NCBI GenBank assembly: GCA_963745515.1
Contig: CAVUXO010000025.1
Location: forward strand, 30,381 to 94,380
Reading direction: 5' to 3'
DNA length: 64,000 nt
Source: an uncultured Alphaproteobacteria bacterium
Lineage (GTDB): Bacteria > Pseudomonadota > Alphaproteobacteria > Rhizobiales > Xanthobacteraceae
Under the pieces are notes generated by a model, which was not told where the DNA came from, ran no database searches, and saw nothing but the letters and a program-made list of their open reading frames with translations. Shown here piece by piece: positions 30,610-49,892 of this stretch (the stretch's first letter is position 1; each line of letters begins with the position of its first letter). A program made the position numbers and the translations under genes.

Positions 30610-30714
30610 CGACTACACCTCGAGAGACACTGACCGCTCAGGTCGCGCGTTGCCGAACTTGACCAGCAGTCACAGCGCGGCCCCGGCGCGGCATGAGTGG
30701 AATGGGCGTTCCCA

Positions 30715-30879
30715 CTAGTGCTCCGTTTCCGAAGTTCGCCTGACACTGCAGCACGCTCAATGCGAACTTCGGAAACAAAGGAGCACTAGCGACTTTATGA
30801 TTCTAGTGCGGCTTTGAATTTGAAGTTCCTGAACGAGCCTGCGGCAACTGCTGCAGGAACTTCAAATTCGCCGCACTAG
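30715..30879. repeat. Double-palindrome intergenic element, copy 2 (same A-B architecture and orientation as 26670-26837)
   Basis: Hairpin A' 30715-30789: ctagtgctcc-gtttccgaagttcgc / gcgaacttcggaaac-aaa-ggagcactag. Hairpin B' 30803-30879: ctagtgcggc-ttt-gaatttgaagttcctg / caggaacttcaaattc-gccgcactag. Located between divergent asnB-like and GT4 genes, so it is not simply a terminator. Confidence 0.85.
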
Positions 30880-31099
30880 TCCAGCAAATTCTACGCCGTC
30901 GTGCCTTCCATGTGCTGGCCAGCTCCCGTTAAGCTTATCCTCTGTGCCATCGCTCGTTCACAATTGTCATTCACGATGCCGGCATTCTTTCACGCCCCGC
31001 ATAGGGCCAATACTTGACATAGTGCGCTGTGGCCGCCGAGAACCGCAAGGATCTGTGCGCCGAGCCGACCCGGCGACAAACTCAACCAGATCCGGATCG

Positions 31100-32341: not shown

Positions 32342-33375
32342 AGGCAGCTCTGATCGGAGCCGGACAGATCGCCCGCCAGCACCTCAGCTGCCTGAAGGCT
32401 TTGCCCGGTGTGGAGCTCGCCGCAGTCTGCGACCTGTCGCCAGCGACGGCGGAGGCCGCGGCGGAGCGGTATGGCGCTCGGAGCTGGTTCACCGATCATC
32501 GAGCCATGCTGGAGAAGGCCAGGCCCGATGTGGTCCACATCACCACGCCACCGACCTCTCACTTCGCGTTGGCCATGGACTCGTTCGATGCCGGCAGCCA
32601 CGTGATCGTGGAGAAGCCCGCCACCTCGACCTTTGAGGAGCTGGAGAGGTTGGTCCGGCGCGCCCAAGAGGGCGGGCGCCACCTCATCGAAGACCACAAT
32701 TACGTCTTCAACCATGCTCCTCAGGAGATACTGCGACGCATCGGCGCGGGCGAGTTTGGAGCAGTGACACACGTCGAGGTGCTCATTTGTCTCGACATTC
32801 TCGGACCCAATGGATTCGCCGATCCCAATTCGCCGCACCCGGCGCTCGCGCTGGCTGGCGGCGCCATCGCCGACTTCCTCCCTCATTTGGCGTCGCTGGC
32901 GCGCGCTTTCGTAGGTCCACATCGGTCCGCTCAGACAGTCTGGACCAAGCGCAAGCCGTCGCCTCTGCCGTTCGACGAATTCCGCGCCTTGGTGGACGCT
33001 GAGCGTGGCACAGCGGCGCTCGGCTTCAGTGCCAGCTCTCAGCCGGACGCTTTTTGGCTGCGGGTCTATGGAGAGCGGATGCAGGCCAGCGCCAACCTGT
33101 TCGAAACGCGGCTCACCTTCGATGGTCCCCGCAACGTACCCAAGCCACTGCGCCCCTTCTTCAGCGGGTTGGAGGAGGGCAAGACCATCCGCCGCGCGGC
33201 GCTCAAAACGCTGCTCGGTAAGTTCAAAGGCCCCGGGGCGTACCAGGGTCTGTGGGAGCTCCTGGCTCGCACGTACCAGGCGCTGGCCGACGGGTCGCCC
33301 CCGCCGGTTACTGAGAGCCACGTGCTTGAGGTGAACCGGATGGTCGAAGCCCTCAAGCCAAGGCAGCAGTCATGA
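32338..33375 (+). CDS. Gfo/Idh/MocA family NAD(P)-dependent oxidoreductase (sugar/nucleotide-sugar dehydrogenase)
   Basis: Rossmann N-terminus MKAALIGAGQIARQHL, DVVHITTPPTSH, EKP motif VIVEKPAT. The start overlaps the upstream stop (GTGA). Confidence 0.85.
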   Translation: MKAALIGAGQIARQHLSCLKALPGVELAAVCDLSPATAEAAAERYGARSWFTDHRAMLEKARPDVVHITTPPTSHFALAMDSFDAGSHVIVEKPATSTFEELERLVRRAQEGGRHLIEDHNYVFNHAPQEILRRIGAGEFGAVTHVEVLICLDILGPNGFADPNSPHPALALAGGAIADFLPHLASLARAFVGPHRSAQTVWTKRKPSPLPFDEFRALVDAERGTAALGFSASSQPDAFWLRVYGERMQASANLFETRLTFDGPRNVPKPLRPFFSGLEEGKTIRRAALKTLLGKFKGPGAYQGLWELLARTYQALADGSPPPVTESHVLEVNRMVEALKPRQQS

Positions 33376-34367
33376 AAGCCCTCGTTACCGGCGCCAATGG
33401 ATTTCTCGGTCGCCATGTGGTCGGTGCGCTGCTCGCCCGGGGCGTTGAAGTCCGTGCGTTGGTTCGCCCTGCCGGGCGATTGGAAGAGCTCGGCTGGCCC
33501 TCTTCGGTTGAAGTCTTCCGGGCCGACCTGCGTACCTCGCGCGAGCTGCGGGGCGCATTCGAGGGCGTTGACGTGCTGGTTCATTTGGCGGCGGTGGTCT
33601 CAGGCGGGGAGGACGTGCAATTTGCGGGGACCGTGGCCGGTACCGAGCGCCTGCTGGAAGCGATGGCAGCCAGTGCCTGCCGCCGCCTCATTCTGTGCGG
33701 CACCTTCTCGGTCTACGATTTCAGCTCAACCCGTCAAATCCTCGATGAGAGCTCACCGCGGCACCAAGTGCCAGACCTGTATAGCCGCGACGGCTACACA
33801 ATTGCGAAGTGGTGGCAGGAGCGCGTGAGCCGGCGATTTGCCGAGCGGCACGGCTGGGACCTCACCGTGCTCCGGCCCGGCTTCATCTGGGGACGCGATC
33901 ACGCTTTCCTTTCCGCCCTGGGCCTGCAGTTCGGACGGCACTATTTGGTCATCGGCCCAATGACGCGCATGCCGATGACTCACGTGGAGAACTGCGCTGA
34001 CGTCTTCGCGCTGGCGGCGCTCGATCCCCGCGCCCGGGGGCAGACGTTGAACGTGGTTGACGACCATGGTGAGCGCATCTGGAGATATCTGGCCGACTAC
34101 ATGCGTGGCGTTGGCCAGTCGGGCTGGCGCCTGCCGATCCCCTACTGGCTCGCGATCTCGGTGGTGCGATTGGCCTATGCCACGGTCTTCAGGCGCGCCA
34201 CCAAGGTGCCCCTCATCCTCATCCCGCGCGCAATGGAATCCCGGCTAAAGCCGCTCAGGTTCGAGAACCAGAAGCTGCGGACGACGCTGGGCTGGACCCC
34301 GCCGCTCAATTACGAGCAGTGCCTGGCACGGACCTATGGTCCTATGGTGGCATCGCGCACAGCCTAG
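33372..34367 (+). CDS. NAD-dependent epimerase/dehydratase family (extended SDR)
   Basis: MKALVTGANGFLGRHVV (GxxGxxG) and the catalytic Y-x3-K in YTIAKWW. ATGA overlap with the upstream gene. Confidence 0.85.
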   Translation: MKALVTGANGFLGRHVVGALLARGVEVRALVRPAGRLEELGWPSSVEVFRADLRTSRELRGAFEGVDVLVHLAAVVSGGEDVQFAGTVAGTERLLEAMAASACRRLILCGTFSVYDFSSTRQILDESSPRHQVPDLYSRDGYTIAKWWQERVSRRFAERHGWDLTVLRPGFIWGRDHAFLSALGLQFGRHYLVIGPMTRMPMTHVENCADVFALAALDPRARGQTLNVVDDHGERIWRYLADYMRGVGQSGWRLPIPYWLAISVVRLAYATVFRRATKVPLILIPRAMESRLKPLRFENQKLRTTLGWTPPLNYEQCLARTYGPMVASRTA

Positions 34368-34454
34368 CGCTGAGGCAAGGGTCGGTTGAGCAAACGACAG
34401 AGCTGTAGTTGAGCGAACAGCGGCAGTCGGAAAGCATGTAAGGGCAAGATGCCT

Positions 34455-35462
34455 TCAATTGCCCCCTACGGTCGGATGACTGGCATGCCAAATGTGAGCC
34501 CGTTCAGCGTCGACTTGCGACGTGGCGGCATGTTTGCCCATGCGCAGGCAGGCGCGCTGATAGGAGCGGAGAAAGCGCCTGAACTCGAGGTCGTCGTAGC
34601 GTGGCAGGCCCCTGAGCCAGCTCCTGAAATAGCCCCACAGCATGGCGACGCTACCGACCAACACCGGATGCGCTGGTAGCCGGTATGCAGATACTACGAA
34701 CCAGTAGAGGGGCGACGTGCCCATGAAGTACTGCCCGAATCCGGCCCGCAGACGTCCGGTCCAGATGCCCTTCTGGCTCGCGCCTTGCGGGCGCAAGTGA
34801 ACGAAGCGGAGAGGCTCAAGATCGACGCTCTCGGCAATCCAGCCGAGCATGCGGGCCCGGTGGCAGTCGATGCCGTCCCACATGACCTGGCGCACGAAGC
34901 CACCGATCTCCTTGAAGCAGGTGACGCGGTAGAACTTCGTCATGCCCACTGACATCTCGTCGCCGCTGCCCTCAGGCACCAGCGTGCCGCGCTGTGGGTC
35001 GAAGAACCACGGCTTGCCTGACACGGTGCCCAGCCGCGGATTCGCTTTCATCATTCCGAGGAGGATCTCGAAATAGCGGGGCGGGAGGTCGAGGTCGAGG
35101 TCGAGCTTACACAGAAAAGGAAAGTCATCGAGGTTGATCGTGTCCAGACCGGCGTAAAACGCTTCGACAACGCCCGGTCCGACGCTTCGCTGACCGCGGT
35201 CGACGCGCCGCACAACCTTGAGGTAGGGCAGCTTGCTGGCGTACTCGTCGAGAATGGCCGGCGTCGCATCGGTCGAGCCATCGTCCACGACAATCCACAG
35301 GGCAGGGGGAACTGTCTGCGCTGCGACGCTGTCGAGCGTCCTGCGCATGTGCTCCGACTCGTCGCGGCAAGGCGACACCAATACGTAGCGCAGCTCCGAG
35401 GGACTGGGATCAGGGGGCACTGATCGCGTGCTTGCGCTGGTTTGTGCGGCGTAGTGGATCAT
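34455..35462 (-). CDS. Glycosyltransferase family 2
   Basis: GT-A N-terminal block VLVSPCRDESEHMRRTLDSVAAQTVPPALWIVVDDGSTDAT; DLD acidic motif (CKLDLDLDL). Confidence 0.85.
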   Translation of the reverse strand: MIHYAAQTSASTRSVPPDPSPSELRYVLVSPCRDESEHMRRTLDSVAAQTVPPALWIVVDDGSTDATPAILDEYASKLPYLKVVRRVDRGQRSVGPGVVEAFYAGLDTINLDDFPFLCKLDLDLDLPPRYFEILLGMMKANPRLGTVSGKPWFFDPQRGTLVPEGSGDEMSVGMTKFYRVTCFKEIGGFVRQVMWDGIDCHRARMLGWIAESVDLEPLRFVHLRPQGASQKGIWTGRLRAGFGQYFMGTSPLYWFVVSAYRLPAHPVLVGSVAMLWGYFRSWLRGLPRYDDLEFRRFLRSYQRACLRMGKHAATSQVDAERAHIWHASHPTVGGN

Positions 35463-35507
35463 ATGGTCTTGCCGAATACGATCAGGTGCTGCCTTCAGTG
35501 GGCCTTG

Positions 35508-36692
35508 TCAGCCAGCGGACAGTTCATGAGGAAGCCCACGAGTTGGGCCGTTCAGCGCTGCTTTCTTGGAGAGCAGTGCATCGATGAAGAACTTGGTGGC
35601 CCAGTTTGGATATTGCAGCGGAGCATAGCGGCCATAGATGGGGAGCGAACCCTTGATGCCGCCGTAGTAGGGCGCCGCGGTCGACGTCACGTCCTGTGTC
35701 ATGGCAACGTCATCGAGCAGATTGAGCCCTGCGTTGAGATAACGCTTGTCACCTTCGAGGCCATAGAGCCTGAAGAACACAATCGCCAGCTGCGCATATC
35801 CCGTCAGGCATCGATGGCTGGAGAGAAATTCCCAGTTTTCGCCAATCTCTGACGCCAGATGGTGCTTGGCATCGTAGACCGCAACGATGCGCTCGGCGGC
35901 GCGGCGAACGGCTTCGAGGTAGGATTCGCGCCCGGAGATGCAGTGGATCTCGATCAGTCCTTGCAACACGTAGGCGATGCCATGAGTATTGGCATTCCAG
36001 CCCGGCTGAAAGATGTTGTTGCGGAAGAATCCGTTGCCGGCCTGCTGCGCCACCGTCCAGTCGGCATTGGCAAGCGCGACGTTCTCAAACGTCTTCTCGC
36101 CGAGCAGCCTGCCCAAGGTCAGCAGGGCCCAGGCGCTTCGCACGTTGTAGGCGTGCGCCATGTCGTAATGCTCGTTGCGCACGAACGATCCGGTTTCGTC
36201 GGCCGATGAAACGAGGAAATCGCCCGCCCGCCGTGCGTGGGGAACGAGATCTTGCCGTCCCCGTCGCAAAATCAGTGCGTTGAATCCGTGAAGGATCTGG
36301 CCGGTGTTGAAGACGACCGGCTTGGTGTCCTGCCGGAGGTCATGCTCAATGAAACCGCCACTCGGCTCTTGTATTTCCGCAAGCCATTCGCCTAACCGCT
36401 CCGCGCTCGAGGCCAAGCTGGGCCGGTTAAGGTGCTCGGCCAGATCGAGCAGCGTCGGGATGATGTAGCCTGTCGTCTCTCGATACGGAGGCATCCACCC
36501 CTTGCCAACCTTATATCCCTTCGAGGACGCGCGCCCGTTGCCCTGCTCGATGGATCGCGTGATGAACGTGACCGCCGCATCGAGGTGAACTTTATCATCC
36601 GTCAGTCGGTCTGACGTCTTCTGGGTTGGGAACGTAACGCGGAAGAAGTCGCGAACGCTCTCGACGGCAAAATGAGCCAGCATCAGCTTCAA
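35508..36692 (-). CDS. Hypothetical (alpha/alpha)6-toroid-like protein (prenyltransferase/squalene-cyclase-repeat-like)
   Basis: 394 aa, soluble. Recurrent helix-pair segments with QEPSGGF and QQAGNGFF motifs resembling QW/terpenoid-cyclase-type repeats. No catalytic assignment is possible by eye. Confidence 0.45.
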   Translation of the reverse strand: MKLMLAHFAVESVRDFFRVTFPTQKTSDRLTDDKVHLDAAVTFITRSIEQGNGRASSKGYKVGKGWMPPYRETTGYIIPTLLDLAEHLNRPSLASSAERLGEWLAEIQEPSGGFIEHDLRQDTKPVVFNTGQILHGFNALILRRGRQDLVPHARRAGDFLVSSADETGSFVRNEHYDMAHAYNVRSAWALLTLGRLLGEKTFENVALANADWTVAQQAGNGFFRNNIFQPGWNANTHGIAYVLQGLIEIHCISGRESYLEAVRRAAERIVAVYDAKHHLASEIGENWEFLSSHRCLTGYAQLAIVFFRLYGLEGDKRYLNAGLNLLDDVAMTQDVTSTAAPYYGGIKGSLPIYGRYAPLQYPNWATKFFIDALLSKKAALNGPTRGLPHELSAG

Positions 36693-36962
36693 TTATCTCC
36701 GCCACTCGCGAGTTACTGACCTGCAAACTGCACAGTGAAAGTCTATACTGCCTATATTACGCTCTGATAATAGTCGACGTTAACTGATTTGTTCAAATTA
36801 GATTAATTAACTGTCGTATCATGCGATAACACGCGCCGAACCCGCCGTCTAAGCCGCTGGTGGAATTTAGATCAGCCAGTTCCCAGCGGCAAATCGGCGG
36901 ACTACAAGTCGCGGTGTGGATGTCCGGGCCGATTGCGCGTCGGCAATGCACGAGGTTGGAAG
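36693..36962. promoter_or_regulatory. AT-rich divergent promoter region between the toroid-protein operon (-) and the ACP/LuxCE operon (+)
   Basis: The most AT-rich stretch seen in the window (e.g. tatactgcctatattacgctctgataatagtcgacgttaactgatttgttcaaattagattaattaact), flanked by divergently oriented genes. Confidence 0.35.
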
Positions 36963-37202
36963 ATGGATCTTGAGGAAAGAGTACTGAAGATTTTCAAGCA
37001 GGAACTTGAGATCAATGGCGACGTGGACACGAGTTCTTTGAGGTATAATGAAACCCCCAACTGGGGGTCATTGGCTCACATATCAATGGTATCGGCGCTC
37101 GAGGGCGAATTCGATATCATGCTTGAGCCAGACGATATTCTTGCGATGAGCAGCTTCGACAAAGCCGTCAGCATCGTTCGAAAAGCTTCCAATGCTGGTT
37201 GA
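36963..37202 (+). CDS. Acyl/peptidyl carrier protein (phosphopantetheine-binding)
   Basis: 79 aa, acidic, four-helix-type pattern. Candidate attachment Ser in NWGSLAHISMVSALE. Its stop overlaps the start of the next gene. Confidence 0.7.
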   Translation: MDLEERVLKIFKQELEINGDVDTSSLRYNETPNWGSLAHISMVSALEGEFDIMLEPDDILAMSSFDKAVSIVRKASNAG

Positions 37203-37944
37203 TCTTTCCGACAGGGTTGCAATCGTTACGGGCTCGGCGCGGGGTATCGGTCTTGCGACCGCCAAACGCCTCGCCCTCGCGGGCGCACACGTCGTGATCA
37301 ATTCGCGGCAGGACGATGCGCACTTGGCTGAGGCGGCTGAGTTGCTCCGGGCCGGCGCAAAGTCACAGATATTGCCGATTGCCGCTGATGTCGGAACGGC
37401 TCAAGGTGCCGCATCGCTTGTCAAAGCCACTTTCGACACGTTTCGCCGGATCGATGTTCTCGTCAACAACGCGGGGATTCTAAAGGAAGCGCCGATTGGA
37501 ATGATCGGAAGCGATGATATCAAGTCGTTGATCGATGCCAACCTGGGCAGCGTGCTCAACATGACCCAGGCGGTCAGCAGGGTGATGGCCCGGCGCAAAG
37601 CGGGTGCTATCGTCAATTTGACATCGATTATGGGGCGTCGCGGACGTGCCGGGCAATTCGTCTATAGCGCGACGAAAGCCGGAGTGATCGGTGCCACTTT
37701 GGCGGCTGCGAAGGAATTGTCCAAGTCGGGAATTCGCGTCAACGCCGTTGCGCCCGGCTATATTGAGACAAGCATGACCCAGCATGTTACGGAGTCCCAA
37801 AAAGCAGCATTGATGAGCAACATCCCCGCGGGACGAGCTGGAACGCCCGATGATGTAGCCGCCGCGATCTGTTTCCTGGTCTCAGATTTTGCGCAGTACA
37901 TCACCGGCCAAGTTCTCGGGGTCGATGGTGGAATGATTGCGTGA
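37192..37944 (+). CDS. SDR family 3-oxoacyl-[ACP] reductase (FabG-like)
   Basis: VAIVTGSARGIGLATA (TGxxxGIG), NNAG, catalytic S...YSATKAG, PGYIET. Confidence 0.9.
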   Translation: MLVDLSDRVAIVTGSARGIGLATAKRLALAGAHVVINSRQDDAHLAEAAELLRAGAKSQILPIAADVGTAQGAASLVKATFDTFRRIDVLVNNAGILKEAPIGMIGSDDIKSLIDANLGSVLNMTQAVSRVMARRKAGAIVNLTSIMGRRGRAGQFVYSATKAGVIGATLAAAKELSKSGIRVNAVAPGYIETSMTQHVTESQKAALMSNIPAGRAGTPDDVAAAICFLVSDFAQYITGQVLGVDGGMIA

Positions 37945-39386
37945 TGCTCTCGGACACCGCGCTGCGAGATGAATTGCTGGTTGGTCCTGCGGCGGACGAT
38001 CGTCCTTGTATCAAAGACGATCGTTCCGGCTGGATTGCCCGTTCAGCCCTGGTGCAGGCCGCTGACGAGCTCGGTTTGCGGATATCGCAAGCCGGCCCTG
38101 GGCTCGTTTTCCTTTTCGCCTCAAATGACGTATCGACGGTGGTGGGACTACTGGCAGCATGGTCGATGCGAATGCCGGTCGCGCTGCTCGATCCTCGCTT
38201 GTCGGCTGAATCCGTCGAGAGATTGATCGGGGCCTATCGACCCGAAGTCGTTCTGGGTCGCGAGCTTGCCGACGAAGACTCGCGTTACCATTCCGTCTCC
38301 ATCCAGCATGCGCTTGGCGCCAATGTCGTCAATCTTGCTCGCACCCCCTGTCGCAGCACGATCAACCCGGATCTTGCGCTTCTCCTGTCGACCTCGGGGA
38401 GCACGGGCTCGCCAAAGTTCGTTCGATTGGCCCGTGACGCTGTCATCGCCAATGCCAGACAGATTGCCCGGGCACTCTCAATCGATGCGACTGACGTCGG
38501 CATTGGGCATCTGCCGCTGCATTATTCCTATGGTCTCTCGGTTGTCACGTCGCACCTCTTTGCTGGTGCATCGATCTCGCTGACCACTGCGCAGGTGACT
38601 GAGCCTGCTTTGTGGAGGAGGATAGGGGAGGATTCCGGGACTTATTTTCCGGGAGTTCCGTTCCATTACAGTGTGCTCGATCGCCTCGGCGTCAAGCGCA
38701 TGGTTCCCGCCTCGGTGCGCACCTTCACCCAAGCGGGGGGACATCTTGACCAAAACACCCGGCTGCGGTGCTACCAGGCAATTTCGGAGAGGGGCGGCCG
38801 ATTTTACGTGATGTATGGACAGACAGAGGCTGGCCCGCGAATTACGACCTTGCAGAGCGATGATTTTCCAAAATACAGCGCGAGCGTCGGACTGGCACTG
38901 GAGGGAGGCGCACTTTCGATCATCGATGACAATGGCGTTCCTCAGCCAGCAAATGCCGAGGGCAATGTCGTCTACCAGGGCCCAAACGTGATGATGGGTT
39001 ATGCGACGGATCGAGAGCAGCTCGCGCTTCCGGATACCCAGGGTGGCCGGCTCGAGACCGGCGACCGAGGCGTGCTGTCCGAAAACGGCTTCTTGACGCT
39101 CACGGGACGCACCCAACGTTTTGCAAAGATCGCCGGGCTTCGTATTGCCCTCGACGAGATTGAGGCTTCTCTGGGTTCCAGCGGTTCCGTCGCGGCGCTC
39201 GCTCCAAAGGACAAGATCGTTCTCTATGTTCACAAATCGGTGGCGCCAGAGGTGAAGACCATGGCGGCCCAACTTGCCCAACGGATGCGCCTGCCGAGCA
39301 CCGTTTTTGTGACAAAACCCGTTGATTTAATCCCGCTCAAGTCGAGCGGAAAAATCGACTACAAGGCGCTGGAGATGCTGGAGTGA
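37941..39386 (+). CDS. AMP-dependent (adenylate-forming) acyl ligase
   Basis: AMP-binding core LLSTSGSTGSPKFVRL, YGQTEAG, GDRG and the C-terminal SGKIDY lysine loop. Start overlaps the FabG-like stop. Confidence 0.85.
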   Translation: MMLSDTALRDELLVGPAADDRPCIKDDRSGWIARSALVQAADELGLRISQAGPGLVFLFASNDVSTVVGLLAAWSMRMPVALLDPRLSAESVERLIGAYRPEVVLGRELADEDSRYHSVSIQHALGANVVNLARTPCRSTINPDLALLLSTSGSTGSPKFVRLARDAVIANARQIARALSIDATDVGIGHLPLHYSYGLSVVTSHLFAGASISLTTAQVTEPALWRRIGEDSGTYFPGVPFHYSVLDRLGVKRMVPASVRTFTQAGGHLDQNTRLRCYQAISERGGRFYVMYGQTEAGPRITTLQSDDFPKYSASVGLALEGGALSIIDDNGVPQPANAEGNVVYQGPNVMMGYATDREQLALPDTQGGRLETGDRGVLSENGFLTLTGRTQRFAKIAGLRIALDEIEASLGSSGSVAALAPKDKIVLYVHKSVAPEVKTMAAQLAQRMRLPSTVFVTKPVDLIPLKSSGKIDYKALEMLE

Positions 39387-40450
39387 TTTTCGAGGAGCTC
39401 GTTTCACGACCGGCATTCACGGTCCCTGATCATGAGAAAGAGCCACTCCTGCTGCGTGGCCTGGCGGAGCTGACGCGTCACCATCATGGCAGTTGCGTTG
39501 GGTATCGGAACATCCTTGAGGCCGCATATGCAGGTCGTCAGTCCTTTGAACGCATAGACGAAATTCCCTACTTGCCGGCTGCGCTGTTCAAGAGGATCGA
39601 GCTGTCGTCGACAGCGAAGCCGACCCTCACCCTGCAGTCCAGCGGAACGACAGGTCAACAACCGAGCAGGATTGTCGTGGACGCCGAGACCTCCGAGCGA
39701 CAATCTCGAGGTCTCCTTTCGGTATTCCGTCCGGTGTTGGGCGCCCATCGTCTGCCGCTGCTTGTCATCGATACTCGCAAGGTCATCACGGACCCCCGGA
39801 TGCTAACGGCGCGCGGCGCGGGCGTGCTGGGAATGATGAAGTTCGGAGCCAAGGCCACTTTCGCACTGGATCCGGACTTGAACGTTATCGAAGCGGACGT
39901 GTTGAGCTTCGTCGAAAGGCATGGGAAACAGCCGTTCTTGATTTTTGGCTTCACGTTTCTCGTATGGCTGAAGTTGTTCAAGACCTTTGAGCATCGTGGA
40001 CTCGATCTCTCGAACGCCATCATCATACATTCGGGTGGCTGGAAGAAGATGGAGGAGATGCGTGTCTCCAACAATGCGTTTCGAGAGCAGTTCAATGCCA
40101 GGTTCGGCATCCGCCACATCCACAATTTCTATGGCTTCGTCGAGCAGCTCGGCTCGATTTTCGTCGAAGCCGATGATGGACTTCTCTACGCGCCCAACTA
40201 CGCGGACGTCATCGTTCGCGATCCCGCCACCCTGCAGCCCCTGCCTGTAGGCGAAACCGGCTTGCTGCAAGTGGTGTCTCTGCTCCCCAAATCTTATCCC
40301 GGCCATTCAATCTTGACCGAGGACCTCGGAATTGTCGAGCGCGTCGACAATGCCTCGATCGGACGCATGGGCAAGGGAATCCGCGTCCTGGGACGGCTGC
40401 CAGCCTCGGAGCTCCGGGGATGCAGCGACGTCATAGCGGCGGCGGCCTAG
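39383..40450 (+). CDS. LuxE-family acyl-protein synthetase
   Basis: Aligns by eye with Vibrio LuxE blocks: IDEIPYLPAALFKR (IDDIPVFPTSVFK), QSSGTTGQ (TSSGTNG), IIHSGGWKK (IITGGGWKS), VRDPATLQPLPVGETGLLQ (ALDPETLKPVPDGTPGLM), C-terminal RGCSD (KGCA). Confidence 0.75.
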   Translation: MIFEELVSRPAFTVPDHEKEPLLLRGLAELTRHHHGSCVGYRNILEAAYAGRQSFERIDEIPYLPAALFKRIELSSTAKPTLTLQSSGTTGQQPSRIVVDAETSERQSRGLLSVFRPVLGAHRLPLLVIDTRKVITDPRMLTARGAGVLGMMKFGAKATFALDPDLNVIEADVLSFVERHGKQPFLIFGFTFLVWLKLFKTFEHRGLDLSNAIIIHSGGWKKMEEMRVSNNAFREQFNARFGIRHIHNFYGFVEQLGSIFVEADDGLLYAPNYADVIVRDPATLQPLPVGETGLLQVVSLLPKSYPGHSILTEDLGIVERVDNASIGRMGKGIRVLGRLPASELRGCSDVIAAAA

Positions 40451-40458
40451 AGGCGCCC

Positions 40459-41682
40459 ATGACGAGTGTGCAGATATACCGTGGTGAAGGAGAGTTCGAG
40501 CCCGTTGAGCTGAATGATTTGCTGGCTCAGCTCGACGCGAGCCGGTCAGCCGTCGCCGTTCCCTTTGCTCCGAAGAGGGTTGAGCTCATAGGCGAATTGT
40601 CGGCTCGCCTTCTTGCTGATCGAAGAATTGTCGAGCAGCCTGCGCTCGCATATTTTGCACACTGGACTCGTCGAGCCGCGCTGCGCGATTTGGCCGCTCG
40701 CTTCAATGCGACGATTCCCACGGGCGCCATCGCGGCGCCCCGCGGCGTTGCCCTTCATTTCCCTCCAAGGAACGTGGAGACGATTCTTCTTTTCTCCTGG
40801 GTCATGTCGTATCTCGTTGGCAATACCAACGTCGTGCGGTTGCCGAGCGAGCGCGGTGCAGCCGTCAGAAAGGCGATTGACCTGCTGGTTGCCGCTCTGA
40901 GGGAGGCTGAGGGCGCCGATCTCTTCATTCAATACCCTGCCGATGATCGGGTCAGCGAAGCTCTGTCCCGCTGCTCGGACGTTCGGATCGTCTGGGGCGG
41001 GGACGGCAAGATTTGAGCATTTGAATCCCTGCCGCTGCGCAATGGTGGAAAATCGATCTGGTTCGGAGATCGATACTCCTATGCGGTCATTTCAGGGCAG
41101 GCGCTCGTGAGCGCAACCGCGGCTGAAATGACGGAGCTTGCGCGCAATCTGGCCCTGGACATTTTCACATTCGATCAGATGGGGTGTTCGTCTCCCCACA
41201 AGGTCTACATCGCGGGCAATTCGGATGCGCACGGCCATGCGGTCGCCGCGCTCATCGACGCGGTGGGCGATGCGGCGCGGCGTCGCGGTACGGCGATTCC
41301 GCCGTCCCATTCGGTCGTTAAATTGACCGAGGCTATGGCTCTGGCGGGCGCCGAACCCGGCGCCCTCGTTCCAAAGCTGTCAGGCGAGCTGATGTCGGTC
41401 GTGGTTCCCGGCATTCGAGACGCAGAGGATCGTGTCGGCGGCGGCTTCATCGTCGTCGAGTTCATCACGGACATTGCCACCCTGATCGGGCGCGTGCGAC
41501 CGGCTCACCAGACCCTGACATACTACGGCTTTACGACGGCCGAGCTGACCGACTTTGCAAGGGCGGCTACACTTGCAGGATTGTCACGCATCGTCCCGAT
41601 CGGTCAGGCGCTTAGTTTCGACGCCATTTGGGACGGGTATGAGCTGTTTCGAGAGCTGACGCGGACTGTACGCATCATTTGA
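40459..41682 (+). pseudogene. LuxC-family acyl-CoA/acyl-protein reductase interrupted by an in-frame TGA
   Basis: ORFs 40420..41016 and 41107..41682 are in the same frame. The TGA at 41014-41016 lies within ...VRIVWGGDGKI*AFESLPLRNGGKSIWFGDRYSYAVI.... An ALDH-like catalytic Cys context FDQMGCSSPH (41185-41187) lies downstream of the stop. Confidence 0.65.
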
Positions 41683-41731
41683 GCGCCGCGATGAGCGTCA
41701 AGCACCACTATGCCAATGCCAGGAGATCGTT

Positions 41732-42151
41732 GTGTCGGACTCCGTATCGGGCGTAAACGTCGGCCATCGGGCCGAGTTTTCGAAGACACTCAGTGCCGAC
41801 GACATCCGCAAGTTCGCCGAGGTCAGCGGCGACACTAATCCGCTGCATTGCGACCCGGAGTACGCGCGGAGAACTCGCTTTGGCGAGTGCATCGTTCACG
41901 GCATGTTGGGCGCGGGTTTCATCTCGGCCGCTATCGGCACGCTGGCCCCGTACGCCGCCGCCGTCTACCTCACGCAGACATTGCGCTTCCTGCGCCCTAT
42001 CAATGTAGGCGACACGATACGCGCCGTGGCGGAGGTGAAGAAAATCGACGCGGAAACGCGCCAGGCAACAGTGAGCACGGTCTGTTACAATCAGCGCAAT
42101 GAGCAGGTCTTGACGGGAAACGCTCTTATCCTTCTGGAGCCGCTGACGTAA
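41732..42151 (+). CDS. MaoC-like (R)-specific enoyl-CoA/ACP hydratase (hot-dog fold)
   Basis: FAEVSGDTNPLHCDPEYARRTRFGECIVHGMLGAGFIS: the canonical MaoC dehydratase motif. 139 aa. Confidence 0.85.
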   Translation: MSDSVSGVNVGHRAEFSKTLSADDIRKFAEVSGDTNPLHCDPEYARRTRFGECIVHGMLGAGFISAAIGTLAPYAAAVYLTQTLRFLRPINVGDTIRAVAEVKKIDAETRQATVSTVCYNQRNEQVLTGNALILLEPLT

Positions 42152-42229
42152 CGATCGGTGCTTAGGATCGATGCCGGGCGCGGCAAGGATGGCGACGAAG
42201 GCCCCCTCAATTTGGTTAGGAGCAAATTT

Positions 42230-43204
42230 TCAGGTCGAGCTGGCCGGCAACGCGGCTGGCAGTACGGCCGCCGGTGGTGCCTTGCTTTCGAGCCGCATCA
42301 AGAAGCCGCGCAGATACCCGGTTGCACTCGTCCAATGGTAGTAGTCCCTGCCGCGCGAAACACGCGCGAGGAAATAGTCGACCATGGGTGTGACGTCGAC
42401 GAGGACGAACGGGATATATCCCCGCAGATAGACCCGCTTCACGATGCCAAGGCGTTCCATCTCCGGGTAATAGTGGCGCGGGTCGATCTGGGCGCTGAAC
42501 ACCGGGTTGTGCAAGAACACGCTTACTCTGCGCTGCTGACCGCTCCAGTCCACGACTTGCATGTCGACAGGCCGTTCGAGATAGGCCTTGGCCGGGAACC
42601 GGTCGCGCAGAATGCCCTCGACGGTGTGCATCTCGGTCAGATGCCAGCCATCCAGCTCCATGAACAGGACCTTCCCGCCGTGGCGATAGAGGCGGCCGTA
42701 GGGACCGTTCAGGTGAAAAGGCACGGGGTCGTGTCGTGTCCGGCGGCCCACTCTTCGGCCTTGTTTCCCCACAACGCGACCGCATGGGTAGGGTGCACGC
42801 TACGCGTCGTGCCGCGGCCGCGTCGAAACAGCTCCGTGATCAATCCCATCTGCGATGGCGTTCGGCGGACGTCGAAGACGGGATCCTTGCTTGCATACTC
42901 CCACATTGCGCCGCGGAACGGCGAGTTGGTCATCCAGAGCAGCCCGTTGGGCGTCACTCGTTCCTTGAGGTGATCGAGTAGCACCAGTAATGCCGCCCTC
43001 GACCTGGGCGAGAACCGCGCTGTGCGAGTGGATGCTCAAGTGATCGCCGCTGCCGATCCCGAGTTGGTCGAGCACGGCTGCGACCTCTTCCATCTTGAGC
43101 GGGCGACCTGCCACCACCTCCTGCCGGAAGCGTCGTTCGTGCTTGCTTCGGTGATACTGATAGACGCGACGCGCCTGATCGAACAACGATGTTATCATAT
43201 TCAT
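42230..43204 (-). pseudogene. AAC(3)-family (Antibiotic_NAT fold) N-acyltransferase, two frameshifts
   Basis: Three minus-strand fragments (42800..43204, 42709..42984, 42230..42772) concatenate into the AAC(3) pattern: GDHLSIHSHSAVLAQVEGG | LLDHLKERVTPNGLLWMTNSPF...FDVRRTPSQMGLITELFR...RSVHPTHAVALWG | PFHLNGPYGRLYRHGGKVLFMELD..LTEMHTVE. Frame switches near 42980 and 42725. Confidence 0.65.
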
Positions 43205-44074
43205 CGTCTCCTACAGTGTCGGCCGGGCACGTACGCGAGGCGCGTCCCATATCCGGGCGTCATAGGTTCATGGCGCACTAGAGCACGCTCCCTGATTTTG
43301 GTCTCAAGGTCCCGGCTATGGGTCCGATCAAGTCCATTGGATTGCACATTGATCAGAAATAACTTGCCAAGAGCATACTGCTCACGGCTGAGGAATCTCA
43401 CGACCAACGGTTGCGAATTCTTAACAAACGCGATGTCCTATCCAAATCCCTCCCAAGTTGGCAAAGCGCACCGTCGCCAGGCCGGCATAGAAGGCCTTGG
43501 TTCGTTTCGTTTGGTTAAAGCCGTCGTTCAACTCCACTGAGGGCGCGCTGCGGAACTACTGCGCGCGCAGCCTTTGTTTCGGCTCCTGAGTGGAGGTAAT
43601 ATTATACACCGTCCGACTAAGGGACGCCGTTCATGCTGTCCCTGAACTGCAGAGATTCGGCCGGCTATGTCTATTTTTTCGTCATACACCATGACTGGCG
43701 GAACCCGCTGTTAAGGCTTGAAAACTTCCTGTCCGCGGGCAATAACACCGTTCATCACGAACCTTGATGAGTGCGGTTCGAGTAGCTGATCGATCCGGCA
43801 CGACCTGCCTGGCGGTGACCTTTGTTCCCGGTTGAGCCCATAGGCGTAGACAAGTCCTCAGTGTCTTAGAATTCGCAATCTGAGAAATAGCTTTGGCGCA
43901 GGCCCAGCCAGATTTTTTTGCTCGGTCTCAGTTCGCGGCTGCGGGCCGAAAAGCTGATTTTGTTAACCTTGAACAAGTTGTTGGCGTTGCCGCATCCATC
44001 GCTCTTGAGTTGTTACGGATGCGTCACCTTCTGAGCTTACTCCTCGGGGGCGCCAAGCCAGAGGCGGGGCATGC

Positions 44075-45010
44075 ATGAAAAAAGTGCTGTTAACAGGTGC
44101 ATCTGGGTTCATAGGCCGCCACAGCATCGCTCCCCTTGAGGCACGGGGATATGAGGTACACGCCATCTCGTCGCGCAGCACCGCGAACGGTGCGCCGGGC
44201 GTGATTTGGCACCAGGCTGATCTGCACGATTTTTCGCAGATGTCCGCATTGGTCGACAAGCTAGCCGCTTCGCACTTGGTGCATCTTGCCTGGTCGGTTG
44301 GCCAGGGCGGGGCAGACGGCGCAAAAAAAGGTGCTTGCCCGGAAGGATACCGGTGGACTGTTGCGACTTTGAATCTCGTTCGGCGCTTCGTTGAGGCCGG
44401 CGGCCGACGCGCTCTGGTTGCGGGGAGCAGCTTCGAGTACGACTGGACTGGTGGCATGTGCGCCGAGCTCACGACGCCGCGGCGGCCGACCAGTTATTAC
44501 GGCACCTGCAAAAGTGCCCTCTTTGACCTTCTCACCGGATATGCGGAGGCGGTCGAACTCTCGATGGCTTGGGCGCGGATCTTTTTTCTCTTCGGCCCGC
44601 ACGAGCCTCCGGCTCGGCTCATCGCGTCCGTCATCCGCAACTTGCTCAACAACGAGCCAGCACTCTGCAGTCAGGGCACACAGATACGCGATTACATGTA
44701 TGTCGAAGATGTTGCCGACGCTCTGGCCGCGATCTTGGACAGCGACGTTCGTGGTCCCGTGAATGTTGGCACGCAGCAACCGATAGCGCTGCGCGACCTG
44801 ATCGCTCAAGCCGCCGACCGGATCGGCCGGCGCGACCTTGTGCGGTTGGGGGCGCTGCCAACCAGGCCAACGGATGCTCCGCTGGTCCTAGCCGACACGA
44901 CCCGCCTGCGCACTGAAGTCGGCTGGCAGCCCGGCATCGGCGTGCCCGAGGGCATGGACCGCACGATCGCCTGGTGGAAGGCTGAATTGAAGCGTGTCAG
45001 CGGCAACTGA
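44075..45010 (+). CDS. NAD-dependent epimerase/dehydratase family (extended SDR)
   Basis: MKKVLLTGASGFIGRH; the YGTCK (Y-x3-K) catalytic motif. 311 aa. Confidence 0.85.
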   Translation: MKKVLLTGASGFIGRHSIAPLEARGYEVHAISSRSTANGAPGVIWHQADLHDFSQMSALVDKLAASHLVHLAWSVGQGGADGAKKGACPEGYRWTVATLNLVRRFVEAGGRRALVAGSSFEYDWTGGMCAELTTPRRPTSYYGTCKSALFDLLTGYAEAVELSMAWARIFFLFGPHEPPARLIASVIRNLLNNEPALCSQGTQIRDYMYVEDVADALAAILDSDVRGPVNVGTQQPIALRDLIAQAADRIGRRDLVRLGALPTRPTDAPLVLADTTRLRTEVGWQPGIGVPEGMDRTIAWWKAELKRVSGN

Positions 45011-45044
45011 GTTTTCCCAAACACTCGACAGGTCTCACAAAACT

Positions 45045-46367
45045 ATGACGCAATCACGCATCTGCATCATCGGCTCGGGCATGGCTGGCTTTGGCGCAGC
45101 TCATCGCTTTCACGAGGCCGGCTTGTCCACTCTCTTGTTCGAGAAGCATCCCCATTACGGCGGGCATACTGCTTCCTACACATTTCCCGAAGGATTCGTA
45201 TTCGACGAGGGACCGCACATCTCCTTCACCAAGGATGAACGCTTGAAAGCGCTGTTTGCCGAGAGCGTGAACGGCGAATACGAGTTGCTGCAGACGAATG
45301 TCAACAACTATTGGCGCGGCCATTGGATCAAGCATCCTGCACAGATCAATCTCTATGGGCTGCCGCCCGACTTGGTGATTTCGATCGTCAAGGATTACGT
45401 CAAGGCCCATCAAAGCCCGCCACCGGAAATCCGCAACTATGCCGACTGGTTGGTGGCCGCGTATGGCGAAACGTTCGCCCGCACGTTTCCCATGGAATAT
45501 ACGATCAAGTATCACACGACCACCGCCGACAACATGCACACCGACTGGATCGGGCCGCGTATGTATCCGGCGTCGCTCGATGAGGTGCTCCGCGGGGCGC
45601 TTGTACCGTCGACCTCAGAAGTGCACTACATCACGAATTTCCGTTACCCGAAGCACGGTGGCTTCGTGCAGTTTCTCAACAAATTCGTCAAAGAGACAGA
45701 AGTCCGCTGCGGTCACGAATTGATCCGTATCGACCCGAAAGCGCGAACGCTCCATTTCAAGAATGGTCACGTACAACCCTACGATCAGCTGGTGTCGTCA
45801 GTCCCGCTGCCTGAGCTCATTCCGATGATCGACGGGGCGCCGCGCGATGTGCTCGAAGCGGCCGCGAAGCTGGCCTGCACCGAGCTCGTTCTGGTAAGCT
45901 TGGGCCTGAACAAGCCGGATGTTATCGATGCGACCTGGACGTACTTCTACGATCGAGATTTCTTCTTGACCCGGCTGAGCACGCCGCACCTGCAATCACG
46001 CAATAACGTGCCGCCCGGATGCTGCAGCATCCAGGCCGAGTGCTATTTTTCAGACAAGTACCGGCCGCTCGACCGGCGGCCTGAGGATTGCATCGCACCC
46101 GTGATCGAGGATCTAATTCGGTGCGGATTGATTGCTGGGGAGCACGAGGTCATCTTCAGGAATGTTATGCATATCAAGTATGCGAACGTAATCTTCGATC
46201 TTGAAAGCGCGCCGGCGACAGCCACCGTGCACGGCTATTTGGATGACATCGGCATCCAATATTGCGGCCGCTACGGCGATTGGGCCTACATCTGGACCGA
46301 TGAATTTTTCATCAGCGGGGAGAGGGCGGCATCCAAGGCAATCGATGCCTTGGGTCGCAAATCGTAA
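45045..46367 (+). CDS. FAD/NAD(P)-binding oxidoreductase (amine-oxidase / UDP-galactopyranose-mutase-like flavoprotein)
   Basis: Dinucleotide fold ICIIGSGMAGFGAAHRF...LLFEKHPHYGGH followed by FDEGPHISF. The start is set at the ATG (45045) just before the GxGxxG. Confidence 0.7.
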   Translation: MTQSRICIIGSGMAGFGAAHRFHEAGLSTLLFEKHPHYGGHTASYTFPEGFVFDEGPHISFTKDERLKALFAESVNGEYELLQTNVNNYWRGHWIKHPAQINLYGLPPDLVISIVKDYVKAHQSPPPEIRNYADWLVAAYGETFARTFPMEYTIKYHTTTADNMHTDWIGPRMYPASLDEVLRGALVPSTSEVHYITNFRYPKHGGFVQFLNKFVKETEVRCGHELIRIDPKARTLHFKNGHVQPYDQLVSSVPLPELIPMIDGAPRDVLEAAAKLACTELVLVSLGLNKPDVIDATWTYFYDRDFFLTRLSTPHLQSRNNVPPGCCSIQAECYFSDKYRPLDRRPEDCIAPVIEDLIRCGLIAGEHEVIFRNVMHIKYANVIFDLESAPATATVHGYLDDIGIQYCGRYGDWAYIWTDEFFISGERAASKAIDALGRKS

Positions 46368-46413
46368 GGCAAGCGATCCGCCGCGTGATTATTCCAAGGA
46401 AACGATGGGTCGC

Positions 46414-47743
46414 CTAAAGTCCGATACCCTCGTAGCGGGCCAGGCTGTTCTTATCGAACGCTCGGCGGCCATCCACGAGCACCGGCTGCGGATCGCGGCC
46501 TTTCAGGAGCGCCGGCACGTCGCGAAACTCGCTCCAGGGGGTGACGACCACGACGGCGTCAACCTCAGCCAGCGCTGAATCAAGATCCTCGCTATAGCTC
46601 ACGCCGGGCTCGCTGAAGACCTTTCGGGCCTCGTCCATGGCGACCGGATCATAGGCTTTGAGCACCGCTCCCAGCCGCAGGAGCTCGCGCATGATCGGAA
46701 AGGCGGGACTTTCGCGAACGTCGTTCGTGCCGGGTTTGAACGAAAGGCCAAGCACCGCCACATTCAGGCCCTTGAAACTGGTCCAGTGCTTTTCCAGAAG
46801 TGCCACGACCCGTTTTGGCTGCTCTTCGTTGACGCGAATGACCGCCTCGAGCAGAGGCATGGCCCGGCCCCCAGCCTCACCATGTGCAATGAGCGCTTTG
46901 ACATCTTTCGGCAGACAACTGCCGCCAAAGCCACACCCTGCTTGAAGAAAGGAGACAATCGGGGGCAACCCTTCCGCGTTGCGGCCTCGGAAATACTGAC
47001 TCATGTGCACGCCGCGCATGACGTCGACAGCGTCGATATTGCCAATCTCGGCGCCAAGGTTGGCGATCTCATTCGAGAAAGAGATCAGATTTGCAAGCAG
47101 AGCATTCGACGCATACTTGATGAGCTCGGCAGTACGGGTCGTCGTGCGGATGCGTGGCACATTCGGGAAGGGGCTGTATACTTCGTCGATTGCGTCGAGC
47201 GCTCGCTCATCGATCGCTCCCAGTACGATGCGGTCCGGGAACATGAAGTCATGCACGGCCTCGCCTTCGGACAGGAATTCAGGATTCATTCCCACGCCGA
47301 AGTCGGGGCCGGCCTTGCGCCCAGATGCCGCTTCCAGCGCAGGTAGAACATGCCGATCCGTTGTGCCCGGCACGACCGTGCTCTTAACGACCACGACGTG
47401 GTACCCGGGTTTGCGCTTGAGCGCTTCTCCGATCTGTCTGGAGGCTTCCAGCACAGCCGTCAGGTCGATGGTCTTGCCGTTGAAAGGCGTTCCCACGGCG
47501 ATCAGCGTCAAGTCCGAGTTCGAGAACAGCCGCCGGCAAGTCGCCGGTCGCCTTCAGTCTCTTGCCGACGTTCCTGGCAAGAAGCTGATCCAGATCCTGC
47601 TCAAATATCGGCGATTCCGCGCGGTTCAGCATCGCCACGCGCTTGGGATCGATATCGACGCAGGTTACGTCATGCCCCTTATCGGCGAGGCAGGCGCCCG
47701 TCACCAATCCCACATATCCAGTTCCGACGATCGACAGTTTCAT
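46414..47743 (-). pseudogene. UDP-glucose/GDP-mannose dehydrogenase-family nucleotide-sugar dehydrogenase, one frameshift
   Basis: N-terminus MKLSIVGTGYVGLVTGACLADKGHDVTCVD (ORF 47384..47743) continues in another frame as LTLIAVGTPFNG...NPEFLSEGEAV...GFGGSCLPKD (ORF 46414..47511). 1-nt indel near 47520. Confidence 0.85.
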
Positions 47744-48846: not shown

Positions 48847-49216
48847 TATATATTGCCATGATGATATTTTTGCGAATGGCACTGTGGGGTTTATGCCTTA
48901 TCTGTCAAGGCATTTGCCAGTGAGAGACGCCAGACTTGGCCGCAATGCTTAACTTCCATCCGCATGCCTACACACCGGCCGGAGTGAGCCTCCGGCGAGC
49001 TGTACGTACACTCGGCGGGGACGGTAACTTTCTTTAGGGATTGCCAAGCCGGCTGTGTTCGCCCCATCAAAGATTTGACTAGAATGCCAAGGCGGTGCTT
49101 GCAAGCGCGGCAACGACATGACGCAACGATGGTCACGGGCGGCCCATAAAGATTATAGTCGAGAAAGGCGGTAGACCTGTGCAGACAGGCATGCGTCGCC
49201 CGGAGAAAGTAGGCTC

Positions 49217-49873: not shown

Positions 49874-49892
49874 TCCTTGGCTGATCAGATGC

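Follow-up and report, generated by a model that had tools for sequence, protein, structure and literature searches.

The 64,000-nt stretch analysed here (the window) belongs to an uncultured alphaproteobacterium of the Xanthobacteraceae (contig CAVUXO010000025.1, assembly GCA_963745515.1) and carries, at 36963-43204, a compact gene module built around homologues of the LuxE and LuxC proteins of luminous bacteria. Our overall best explanation, to which we assign a probability of about 0.55, is that this module provides an acyl group, other than acetyl, with which an amino sugar of the exopolysaccharide specified by the same locus is N-acylated. The broader claim that it is an acyl-donor system for sugar N-acylation is probable, and the specific scheme in which one carboxyl of a di-acid is reduced falls a little short of even odds. 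The observations that carry this explanation concern protein families, catalytic residues, gene order, the acyltransferase partner, glycan context and natural domain fusions.

Six tightly packed open reading frames (ORFs) lie on the forward strand between 36963 and 42151, with a seventh reading towards them from the opposite strand (43204-42230); neighbouring genes overlap by 11 nt at 37192 and by 4 nt at both 37941 and 39383. All coordinates are positions in the window, and Pfam E-values and bit scores come from a hidden Markov model (HMM) scan of its ORFs. A first-pass annotation, made from the letters alone, had listed these reading frames, their overlapping junctions and several motif blocks, all of which we found, and the Pfam scan assigned the short-chain dehydrogenase/reductase (SDR), AMP-binding, LuxE, LuxC, MaoC and Antibiotic_NAT proteins as that annotation had named them. 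It had not noticed that LuxC and the acyltransferase both read as broken.

The LuxE-family acyl-protein synthetase (39383-40450, + strand; Pfam LuxE, E = 9.1e-50) scored 170.1 bits against PF04443 (cut-off 24.9) with 343 of 355 residues covered, and the interrupted LuxC-family acyl-thioester reductase (40459-41682, + strand; Pfam LuxC, E = 1.7e-26) scored 93.5 bits against PF05893 (cut-off 21), which places both ORFs inside the two families first proposed for them. The sole PDB match of either protein was the Photobacterium LuxC-LuxE complex, 7XC6. LuxE aligned with chain E (E = 1.5e-16) such that ELRGCSD, near its C terminus, fell opposite EQKGCSL, cysteine included, and LuxC aligned with chain A such that FDQMGCSS fell opposite YDQQACFS, catalytic cysteine included. 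The RGCSD residues of LuxE, with C347 as the acylatable cysteine, are invariant in 16 diverse homologues, and LuxC homologues are full length and 62-75 % identical. Against the NCBIfam luminescence equivalogs (the NF052244/NF052251 set), LuxE reached 69.6 bits (cut-off 550) and LuxC 18.9 bits (cut-off 750). The first-pass remark that luxA, luxB and luxD are absent held up, as no luciferase or LuxD family was found among the approximately 60 window ORFs scanned. Judged by these scores, the window proteins are members of the LuxE and LuxC families, not bioluminescence orthologues.

The gene at the head of the operon encodes a putative acyl carrier protein (ACP) of 79 aa (36963-37202, + strand). 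Its earlier designation as a carrier stood in part: there is no Pfam match, and the best NCBIfam ACP models (E = 1e-5) remained under their cut-offs, whereas these ACP-like sub-threshold scores, the putative phosphopantetheine serine in NWGSLAH and a conserved position in the cassette favour it. That serine lies in the W-G-S form of a W-[D/G]-S motif that recurs in the cassette ACPs inspected. The adjoining FabG-like SDR (37192-37944, + strand; Pfam adh_short_C2, E = 1.3e-60) scored 247.7 bits against the TIGR01830 FabG equivalog and did not reach its cut-off of 297.75; on this score it is a FabG-type enzyme, not the housekeeping FabG orthologue. Its proposed task is to reduce an aldehyde or a keto function of the acyl unit.

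Next in order is a stand-alone adenylate-forming ligase resembling the adenylation domains of non-ribosomal peptide synthetases (NRPS; 37941-39386, + strand; Pfam AMP-binding, E = 6.9e-38), whose nearest solved structure is VinN (3WVN, E = 1.8e-28). The substrate of VinN is the dicarboxylic 3-methylaspartate, which it attaches to a stand-alone ACP, and R331 of VinN is one of two loop residues termed key in a review. Cassette ligases carry an arginine aligned to R331 in 66 of 66 family members and a serine in place of the amino-binding aspartate in 65 of 66, a pocket that points to a polar or anionic acid without an amino group as the probable ligase substrate, the same in all lineages.

Two further genes complete the module. 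The MaoC-type (R)-hydratase/dehydratase (41732-42151, + strand; Pfam MaoC, E = 8.6e-25) scored 87.2 bits against PF01575 (cut-off 27), and the hydratase-2 motif SGDTNPLH can be read in its translation. The convergent N-acyltransferase (42230-43204, - strand) has the AAC(3) fold of the Antibiotic_NAT family and is broken into fragments matching PF02522 at 73.3 and 29.7 bits (E = 2.8e-20 and 6.2e-07; cut-off 25); it scored 22.8 bits against the resistance-type AAC(3) model NF033082 (cut-off 270). An intact homologue in a related locus (L004) matches FrbF and AAC(3) structures, with FrbF (3SMA) the nearest solved.

Distribution, gene neighbourhoods and domain fusions

LuxE homologues fall into at least 4,600 clusters at 90 % identity and 1,916 representatives at 50 %. 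We scanned one genome per species and obtained a species-level set of 80 loci, in which SDR, ligase, LuxE and LuxC are co-linear in 74 by tblastn, the SDR is co-linear in 75, and a dedicated ACP is present in 44-45 (homologues occupy the same cassette position in 44, and an ACP family HMM built from 43 homologues recovers 45). These cassettes occur in Alpha- and Gammaproteobacteria, Acidobacteriota, Myxococcota, Gemmatimonadota, Bacteroidota, Chlamydiota, Chloroflexota, Bacillota and Actinomycetota. The window carries the same five genes, ACP-SDR-ligase-LuxE-LuxC, on one strand and in the order of the five-gene cassette. Apparent N-terminal extensions of the ACP in three loci (L056, L061, L062) were discarded as fusions, being merely stop-free GC-rich sequence.

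An acyltransferase gene lies within 1.5 kb of the cassette in 64 of the 80 loci (52 hexapeptide, 9 GNAT and 3 Antibiotic_NAT), and Pfam adds a GNAT protein in one more (L070), bringing the number with such a partner to at least 65. Two Acidobacteriota loci (L060:12278-13210 and L061:5396-6328) encode a 310-aa protein that has no Pfam match, overlaps the LuxC stop and holds the position of the acyltransferase in other loci; it could belong to an unrecognised transferase family.

To describe the surroundings of the cassette, we combined 128 proteins encoded in the flanks of 19 taxonomically diverse loci and scanned them with Pfam; this pooled scan and a wider panel replaced a BLAST panel of window glycan genes, which gave 18 hits across the 80 loci and was too insensitive. 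The commonest flank families were GDP_Man_Dehyd/Epimerase, Hexapep, PglD_N, DegT, GT1, Polysacc_synt_2, Bac_transf and GT2, followed by Acetyltransf_3, NeuB, CTP_transf_3 and PIG-L. The gene types that predominate there include DegT, PglD-like, NeuB, 4,6-dehydratase and glycosyltransferase. In two of the loci, one from Paraglaciecola (L076) and one from the firmicute Calidifontibacillus (L078), pseudaminic-acid clusters enclose the cassette, which sits directly beside pseB/C/F/G/H/I-type genes. Other arrangements lack such company. Approximately 30 Roseiarcus-like loci (L009-L052) read hexapeptide transferase-SDR-ligase-LuxE-LuxC, with a phosphomannomutase gene (PGM/PMM) upstream on the opposite strand, and in an Azorhizobium/Hyphomicrobium group a GNAT gene and the cassette stand alone, adjoined in Azorhizobium by an RND pump. 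Because both groups lie outside recognisable glycan clusters, the link to glycans is frequent, not universal. The first-pass proposal that a hydroxy- or enoyl-acyl unit on a carrier ends up on an amino sugar draws comparative support from the acyltransferase partner and the glycan flanks, short of a universal glycan link; the cassette is equally not confined to lipid or secondary-metabolite clusters.

Natural fusions join several of the encoded activities. A search with one such fusion as the query found LuxE-LuxC fusions in at least 120 clusters, and among the top 120 matches listed none was from Vibrio and the few named ones were uncultured bacteria. Ligase-LuxE fusions had six representatives, a LuxE-LuxC-ligase fusion was found as one protein of 1279 aa, and a fusion of an Fe-alcohol dehydrogenase with LuxE had one representative, suggesting conversion of the LuxC aldehyde to an alcohol. 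Examples of fusions are P0366, P0376, P0394, P0444, P0466, P0472, P0423 and P0453, together with L080:697-3000 and L088:9001-11319. One fusion locus, from Oscillospiraceae, also holds NeuB, thioesterase, transketolase/thiamine pyrophosphate (TPP) enzyme, LicD and phosphoenolpyruvate (PEP) mutase genes. Finally, a 1105-aa protein of Bradyrhizobium sp. RDM4 (L087) combines AMP-binding, PP-binding and Antibiotic_NAT domains, which suggests that a carrier can hand its acyl group to enzymes of the AAC(3) fold; the 3' end of the fusion gene is the part that falls within the locus examined.

Proposed chemistry and competing explanations

Two adenylating enzymes, a carrier, a thioester reductase and a dehydrogenase fit a substrate with two carboxyls, one of which is reduced while the other ends as an amide. 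From the sequences we infer a substrate, products, an order of steps, a form of the donor and an acceptor along the following lines. The substrate would be a short acid with two carboxyls, or an equally polar acid. LuxE would activate one carboxyl with ATP and hand it by way of its own C-terminal cysteine to the LuxC cysteine, LuxC would reduce it to the aldehyde with NAD(P)H, and the FabG-like SDR would convert the aldehyde to an alcohol. The ligase would thioesterify the other carboxyl onto the dedicated ACP. MaoC, in the clade of the window, might then add or remove water across C2-C3, and the AAC(3)-fold transferase would take the hydroxy- or enoyl-acyl group off the ACP and place it on a sugar amine, which a PIG-L family de-N-acetylase (49217-49873, + strand; Pfam PIG-L, E = 6.8e-12) may expose. 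Reduction could come first, on the free acid, or take place on the ACP-bound acid. As a formal model, L-malate would yield (S)-2,4-dihydroxybutanoyl, the tetronate of Vibrio cholerae O1.

A bolder version, which we regard as speculative and rather doubtful, is that the cassette is a single cross-phylum pathway for one conserved C4 acyl group, turning a malate-like di-acid into a tetronate-like 2,4-dihydroxybutanoyl thioester. If true, it would explain V. cholerae O1 tetronate together with a 376-Da derivative of pseudaminic acid (Pse) and a 102-Da moiety in Aeromonas, and would imply similar substituents in thousands of uncultured bacteria. The clade of the window would then hold the first AAC(3)-fold enzyme with a carrier-protein acyl donor, and the MaoC step would give an unsaturated or re-hydroxylated variant of the group.

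Several points weigh against the proposal that the module provides an acyl group for an amino sugar of the exopolysaccharide. Both LuxC and the transferase read as inactivated in the window itself. The substrate and product named above are guesses from sequence, and it would be unusual for an intermediate to be held at both ends, by the ACP and by the cysteine of LuxE or LuxC. The best-scoring models for the SDR are 3-oxoacyl-ACP reductases and not aldehyde reductases, and we know of no AAC(3)-family enzyme that uses an acyl-ACP donor. Among relatives, the family HMM found no ACP within 10 kb in the approximately 30 Roseiarcus-like loci, which, apart from the phosphomannomutase, are also without nearby glycan genes. 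The full module in two related loci (L004 and L005) stands beside integrase, LysR and aldehyde-dehydrogenase genes, and their 12-13 kb contigs carry no glycosyltransferase. The Aeromonas mass agreement discussed below is likewise matched by isomers of the proposed group, such as O-methylglyceroyl.

Other readings of the same genes have to be weighed against these points. LuxC might reduce the ligase-loaded acyl-ACP and free an aldehyde, with LuxE serving for reloading or salvage and the AAC(3) enzyme acetylating with acetyl-CoA; the end product would be an aldehyde or alcohol, for instance for N-alkylation or as a free metabolite. To our knowledge, all characterised AAC(3)/FrbF relatives do use acetyl-CoA. 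LuxC-like enzymes can also reduce acyl-CoA or acyl-ACP without LuxE, as for TabE (10.1101/2025.08.11.669332, citing in vitro LuxC), and the direct reduction of acyl-ACP by TabE keeps this route open. We nevertheless consider it unlikely: a thioester that is reduced away leaves the transferase without a donor, although at least 65 of the 80 loci have an acyltransferase partner; LuxE is kept everywhere, often fused to LuxC or to the ligase; and a fusion of AMP-binding, PP-binding and Antibiotic_NAT domains exists. About equally improbable is a simpler donor of the 3-hydroxyacyl or 2-enoyl type (3-hydroxybutanoyl, crotonyl), made from a 3-oxo acid that is loaded by the ligase and then passes through FabG reduction and MaoC dehydration, with LuxE and LuxC in a side role. 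The SDR finds its best NCBIfam models in FabG and acetoacetyl-CoA reductase, 3-hydroxyacyl thioesters are the substrates of MaoC enzymes, and 3-hydroxybutanoyl is the commonest non-acetyl N-acyl group of bacterial glycans. This scheme, however, makes LuxE and LuxC superfluous when they are the most conserved part of the cassette and, in some genomes, fusion partners of the ligase; MaoC is limited to the small clade of the window, the cassette has neither ketosynthase nor thiolase, and the invariant ligase arginine suggests an anionic or polar distal group.

The Pfam family names themselves invite a third reading, guessed at in two published studies (PMC7874193, PMC4875605), in which lux-like reduction of a long-chain fatty acid produces the lipid part of a glycan, a 'liposugar'. 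We judge this very improbable, since the luminescence equivalogs of LuxE and LuxC are far off (69.6 against 550 and 18.9 against 750 bits), the ligase is VinN/NRPS-like and not FadD-like, a LuxD thioesterase was not found, the partner transferases are of small sugar N-acyltransferase types, and Aeromonas glycan masses contain no lipid-sized increment. Somewhat less remote, but still quite unlikely, is a module whose N-acylation target is a small molecule (for example an antibiotic-like compound or an amine metabolite) and which reached the exopolysaccharide locus by mosaic insertion. Consistent with this, the cassette stands alone in Azorhizobium (RND pump, GNAT) and in approximately 30 Roseiarcus-like loci, the L004 module adjoins an integrase, synteny with a closely similar metagenome contig (L086) breaks right at the end of the module, and FrbF, the nearest solved relative of the transferase, acts in phosphonate antibiotic synthesis. 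Set against it, the module lies in both the window and L086 within the same conserved run of glycan genes, the commonest flank families in diverse taxa are all amino-sugar or glycan families, and the Roseiarcus-like loci have a sugar-type hexapeptide acyltransferase and PGM/PMM upstream on the opposite strand.

Interrupted genes and the surrounding locus

LuxC is interrupted by an in-frame TGA at 41014-41016 (+ strand), a C-to-T change relative to the CGA codon of L086, a metagenome contig 95 % identical in DNA. The position is CGA (Arg) in L086 and L004 and encodes Ala in the more distant homologues L002 and L003; recoding of the TGA as selenocysteine was rejected because homologues carry Arg or Ala there, not Cys. 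A 1-nt insertion at approximately 42982 and a 1-nt deletion at approximately 42732 distribute the acyltransferase over three frames relative to intact homologues, which are 324 aa in L086 and 319 aa in L004. Further breaks affect a UDP-glucose dehydrogenase (at approximately 47500), a scrambled ORF (51757-52876), a Wzx flippase gene broken into three or more fragments (53206-54853) and an epimerase (60.0-60.9 kb) split at 60256/60300.

It is possible, although we lean against it, that the LuxC nonsense codon and the transferase frameshifts are real and that the module is dead in this genome, leaving the polymer without the substituent. At least eight disruptions fall within 41-61 kb (41014-60935) and none was seen in 1-40 kb (P ~4e-4 under a uniform rate), frame-breaking changes among the 14 genes shared with L086 are restricted to LuxC and the transferase, and the indels lie outside homopolymer runs. 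Against decay, the closest GTDB relative is a Nanopore-style long-read metagenome-assembled genome, whose copy (L001) is similarly broken relative to L002, a second assembly's version of that sequence; the breaks fall in the half of the locus that varies between strains, where consensus would be poorest; and the broken genes are otherwise well conserved and without deletions. The alternative is that the breaks may be consensus errors of a long-read metagenome assembly. The module in this genome may thus be non-functional or mis-assembled, a matter distinct from the chemistry that the module performs.

The entire 64 kb window is one large Wzx/Wzy-type exopolysaccharide locus. Its export and assembly genes encode a Wzc-like kinase, Wza, a Wzy_C protein and an initiating sugar transferase; genes for sugar nucleotides and sugar transfer encode a GT26 enzyme (WecG), WecB, GT4 and GT2 enzymes, two UDP-sugar dehydrogenases, epimerases (UXS-like and others), RmlC, a nucleotidyltransferase and a GFO/IDH/MocA oxidoreductase. 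A GH9 protein, an AsnB-type amidotransferase, MBOAT, PIG-L and a GtrA-fused GT2 are also present. These family scans bore out the context of PIG-L, WecB and GT26 on which the first reading had relied. A search of the window found no DegT, NeuB, PseG or PseF homologue; because DegT is missing, PIG-L is the sole obvious route to a free sugar amine and a candidate source of the acceptor.

The window and L086 are colinear and 95 % identical over 25396-43213 and unrelated beyond, so that the locus is mosaic, with a breakpoint just past the start of the transferase gene. Immediately after the break, approximately 870 bp (43205-44074) lack a convincing gene. The GH9 and AsnB-type glutamine amidotransferase genes lie amid biosynthetic genes at 26834-30612 (- strand), an arrangement kept in L086. 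Elsewhere, 10615-17690 includes a pyrroloquinoline quinone (PQQ)-dependent dehydrogenase with a cytochrome c domain (10615-12798), an FkbH_N/GDSL-like protein (13919-15019), an MBOAT O-acyltransferase (16221-17690) and two ORFs without a family, at a G+C content of 0.53-0.57 that is lower than in the rest of the window.

Within the clade of the window the cassette has a conserved neighbour, a 394-aa protein encoded divergently at 35508-36692 (- strand). It is 97 % identical in L086 and 82 % identical in L004 and L005, always beside the cassette, and Bradyrhizobium spp. homologues are 80-83 % identical. It has no Pfam match above threshold. Its AlphaFold2 (AF2) model (predicted local distance difference test score, pLDDT, 87; predicted template-modelling score, pTM, 0.90) best matches the GH88 unsaturated glucuronyl hydrolase and AGE-family 2-epimerases, so the protein is a predicted (alpha/alpha)6-barrel with a sugar-enzyme-like fold. 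MaoC, the AAC(3)-fold transferase and this neighbour occur together only in L004, L005 and L086 besides the window. MaoC itself was found in these three and in a 7.8-kb Joint Genome Institute (JGI) metagenome contig, 94 % identical at the protein level and with L086 the nearest sequence found, on which a 391-aa version of the neighbour and MaoC are visible before the contig ends; it is absent from the 80 genome loci. Homologues of the 394-aa protein travel with Antibiotic_NAT genes in L004, L005, L086 and L087. The last of these is a glycan locus (genes of interest at L087:1-305 and L087:9125-9844), with a separate Antibiotic_NAT gene directly upstream of the homologue. A 398-aa protein that follows the L002 transferase was rejected as a further homologue, being undetected by BLAST and without a Pfam match.

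Searches for non-coding and regulatory elements yielded little. Rfam gave no RNA element at E <= 0.1 in 35.0-44.5 kb, a repeat search of 36.5-43.6 kb returned just short, imperfect, chance-like two-copy matches, and the promoter and terminator scan found merely consensus-level sites in the divergent 36.7 kb spacer, with no convincing terminator in the gap between MaoC and the transferase.

Comparison with known systems

The first-pass annotation had treated LuxC and LuxE homologues in polysaccharide clusters as lacking an established function, yet the LuxE domain of RfbN has been tied to tetronate since 1995 (PMC4772473, PMC3441752) and the five genes are on record in flagellin-glycosylation islands (PMC7874193, PMC4875605). 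The core ACP-SDR-ligase-LuxE-LuxC is thus already known and widespread, with functions proposed from homology. New in the window is a clade-specific variant in which the core is joined by MaoC, a transferase of the AAC(3) fold and a neighbour with an (alpha/alpha)6, sugar-enzyme-like fold. Antigenicity, phage receptors and vaccine epitopes are shaped by N-acyl groups other than acetyl on surface sugars, V. cholerae O1 tetronate being the classic case, and tetronate-type enzymology has been a homology-only proposal since 1995, for which the comparative data give a concrete scheme.

V. cholerae RfbN is stated, on a Pfam basis, to have a LuxE domain and a role in tetronate synthesis (PMC4772473). 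Five O-antigen-locus genes, VC0248-VC0252 (rfbK-O / wbeK-O), are assigned to tetronate synthesis, and loss of one product, the 471-aa ATP-binding WbeL, alters the O antigen and gives phage resistance (PMC3441752). This five-gene block serves the 3-deoxy-L-glycero-tetronate (2,4-dihydroxybutanoate) that N-acylates perosamine in V. cholerae O1, and WbeL is similar in size to the window ligase. Morona and colleagues reportedly described the set in 1995 as an ACP, a ligase, an Fe-alcohol dehydrogenase, a LuxC/LuxE-like protein and an acetyltransferase, which presumably maps one-to-one onto the window module. The window has an ACP, a ligase, LuxE and LuxC, a dehydrogenase and an acyltransferase inside a glycan locus; in contrast to V. 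cholerae, an SDR takes the place of the Fe-alcohol dehydrogenase (Fe-alcohol dehydrogenase-LuxE fusions exist in relatives), LuxE and LuxC are encoded separately, the transferase has an AAC(3) fold, MaoC is added and perosamine genes are absent. The V. cholerae pathway was itself proposed from homology and is likened to the window here by description.

Closer in gene content are Aeromonas group II and enterobacterial flagellin-glycosylation islands (orf1-orf3/luxE/luxC), which encode an ACP, a 3-oxoacyl-ACP reductase, an AMP-dependent synthetase, LuxE and LuxC, and whose published interpretation is a guess at fatty acid synthesis or a liposugar (PMC7874193, PMC4875605). The five genes are the same, but in the window they belong to a Wzx/Wzy exopolysaccharide locus and have no pse or flagellin genes alongside; the window transferase is AAC(3)-fold, not a PseH-like GNAT; and MaoC and the (alpha/alpha)6 protein are extra. 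Aeromonas piscicola AH-3, a strain that carries the five-gene cassette, has a flagellin glycan containing a Pse derivative of 376.14 Da and an unassigned 102-Da unit (PMC7874193). By our arithmetic, Pse5Ac7Ac with one acetyl replaced by C4H6O3 would weigh 376.148 Da and C4H6O3 itself 102.03 Da, as for a dihydroxybutanoyl substituent or an isomer of it; the agreement serves as a lead only, because isomers fit equally.

Delivery of an acyl group from a glycan-specific carrier has a counterpart in Flavobacterium psychrophilum wfpC-wfpG, where an O-polysaccharide-specific ACP and reductase build 3,5-dihydroxyhexanoyl for Qui2NAc4N and a PglD-like transferase is predicted to pass the acyl group from the ACP to a UDP-amino sugar (PMC6519341). 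That system uses ketosynthases, whereas the window has none but has two adenylating enzymes and a thioester reductase. Loading of a dicarboxylic acid onto a stand-alone ACP by a stand-alone adenylation enzyme, with subsequent processing of the free carboxyl, is exemplified by VinN/VinL of vicenistatin; there, in a polyketide context, an amino acid is bound via D230 (Ser in cassette ligases) and the free carboxyl is removed, not reduced.

The LuxC-LuxE pair of luminous bacteria (7XC6) shares with the window both families, the aligned catalytic cysteines and adjacency of the genes. The window lacks luxA, luxB and luxD and falls far from the equivalog cut-offs, and its added ACP, ligase, SDR and acyltransferase, together with a polar ligase pocket, favour a short polar acid, not myristate. 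AAC(3) acetyltransferases and FrbF have the fold and PF02522 in common with the window transferase, and FrbF represents a biosynthetic use of the family. The donor proposed for the window enzyme differs, being acyl-ACP instead of acetyl-CoA, and the one pointer to it is the ligase-ACP-NAT fusion; if an AAC(3)-fold enzyme does use acyl-ACP, this would broaden the chemistry known for a family that has been examined chiefly because of antibiotic resistance.

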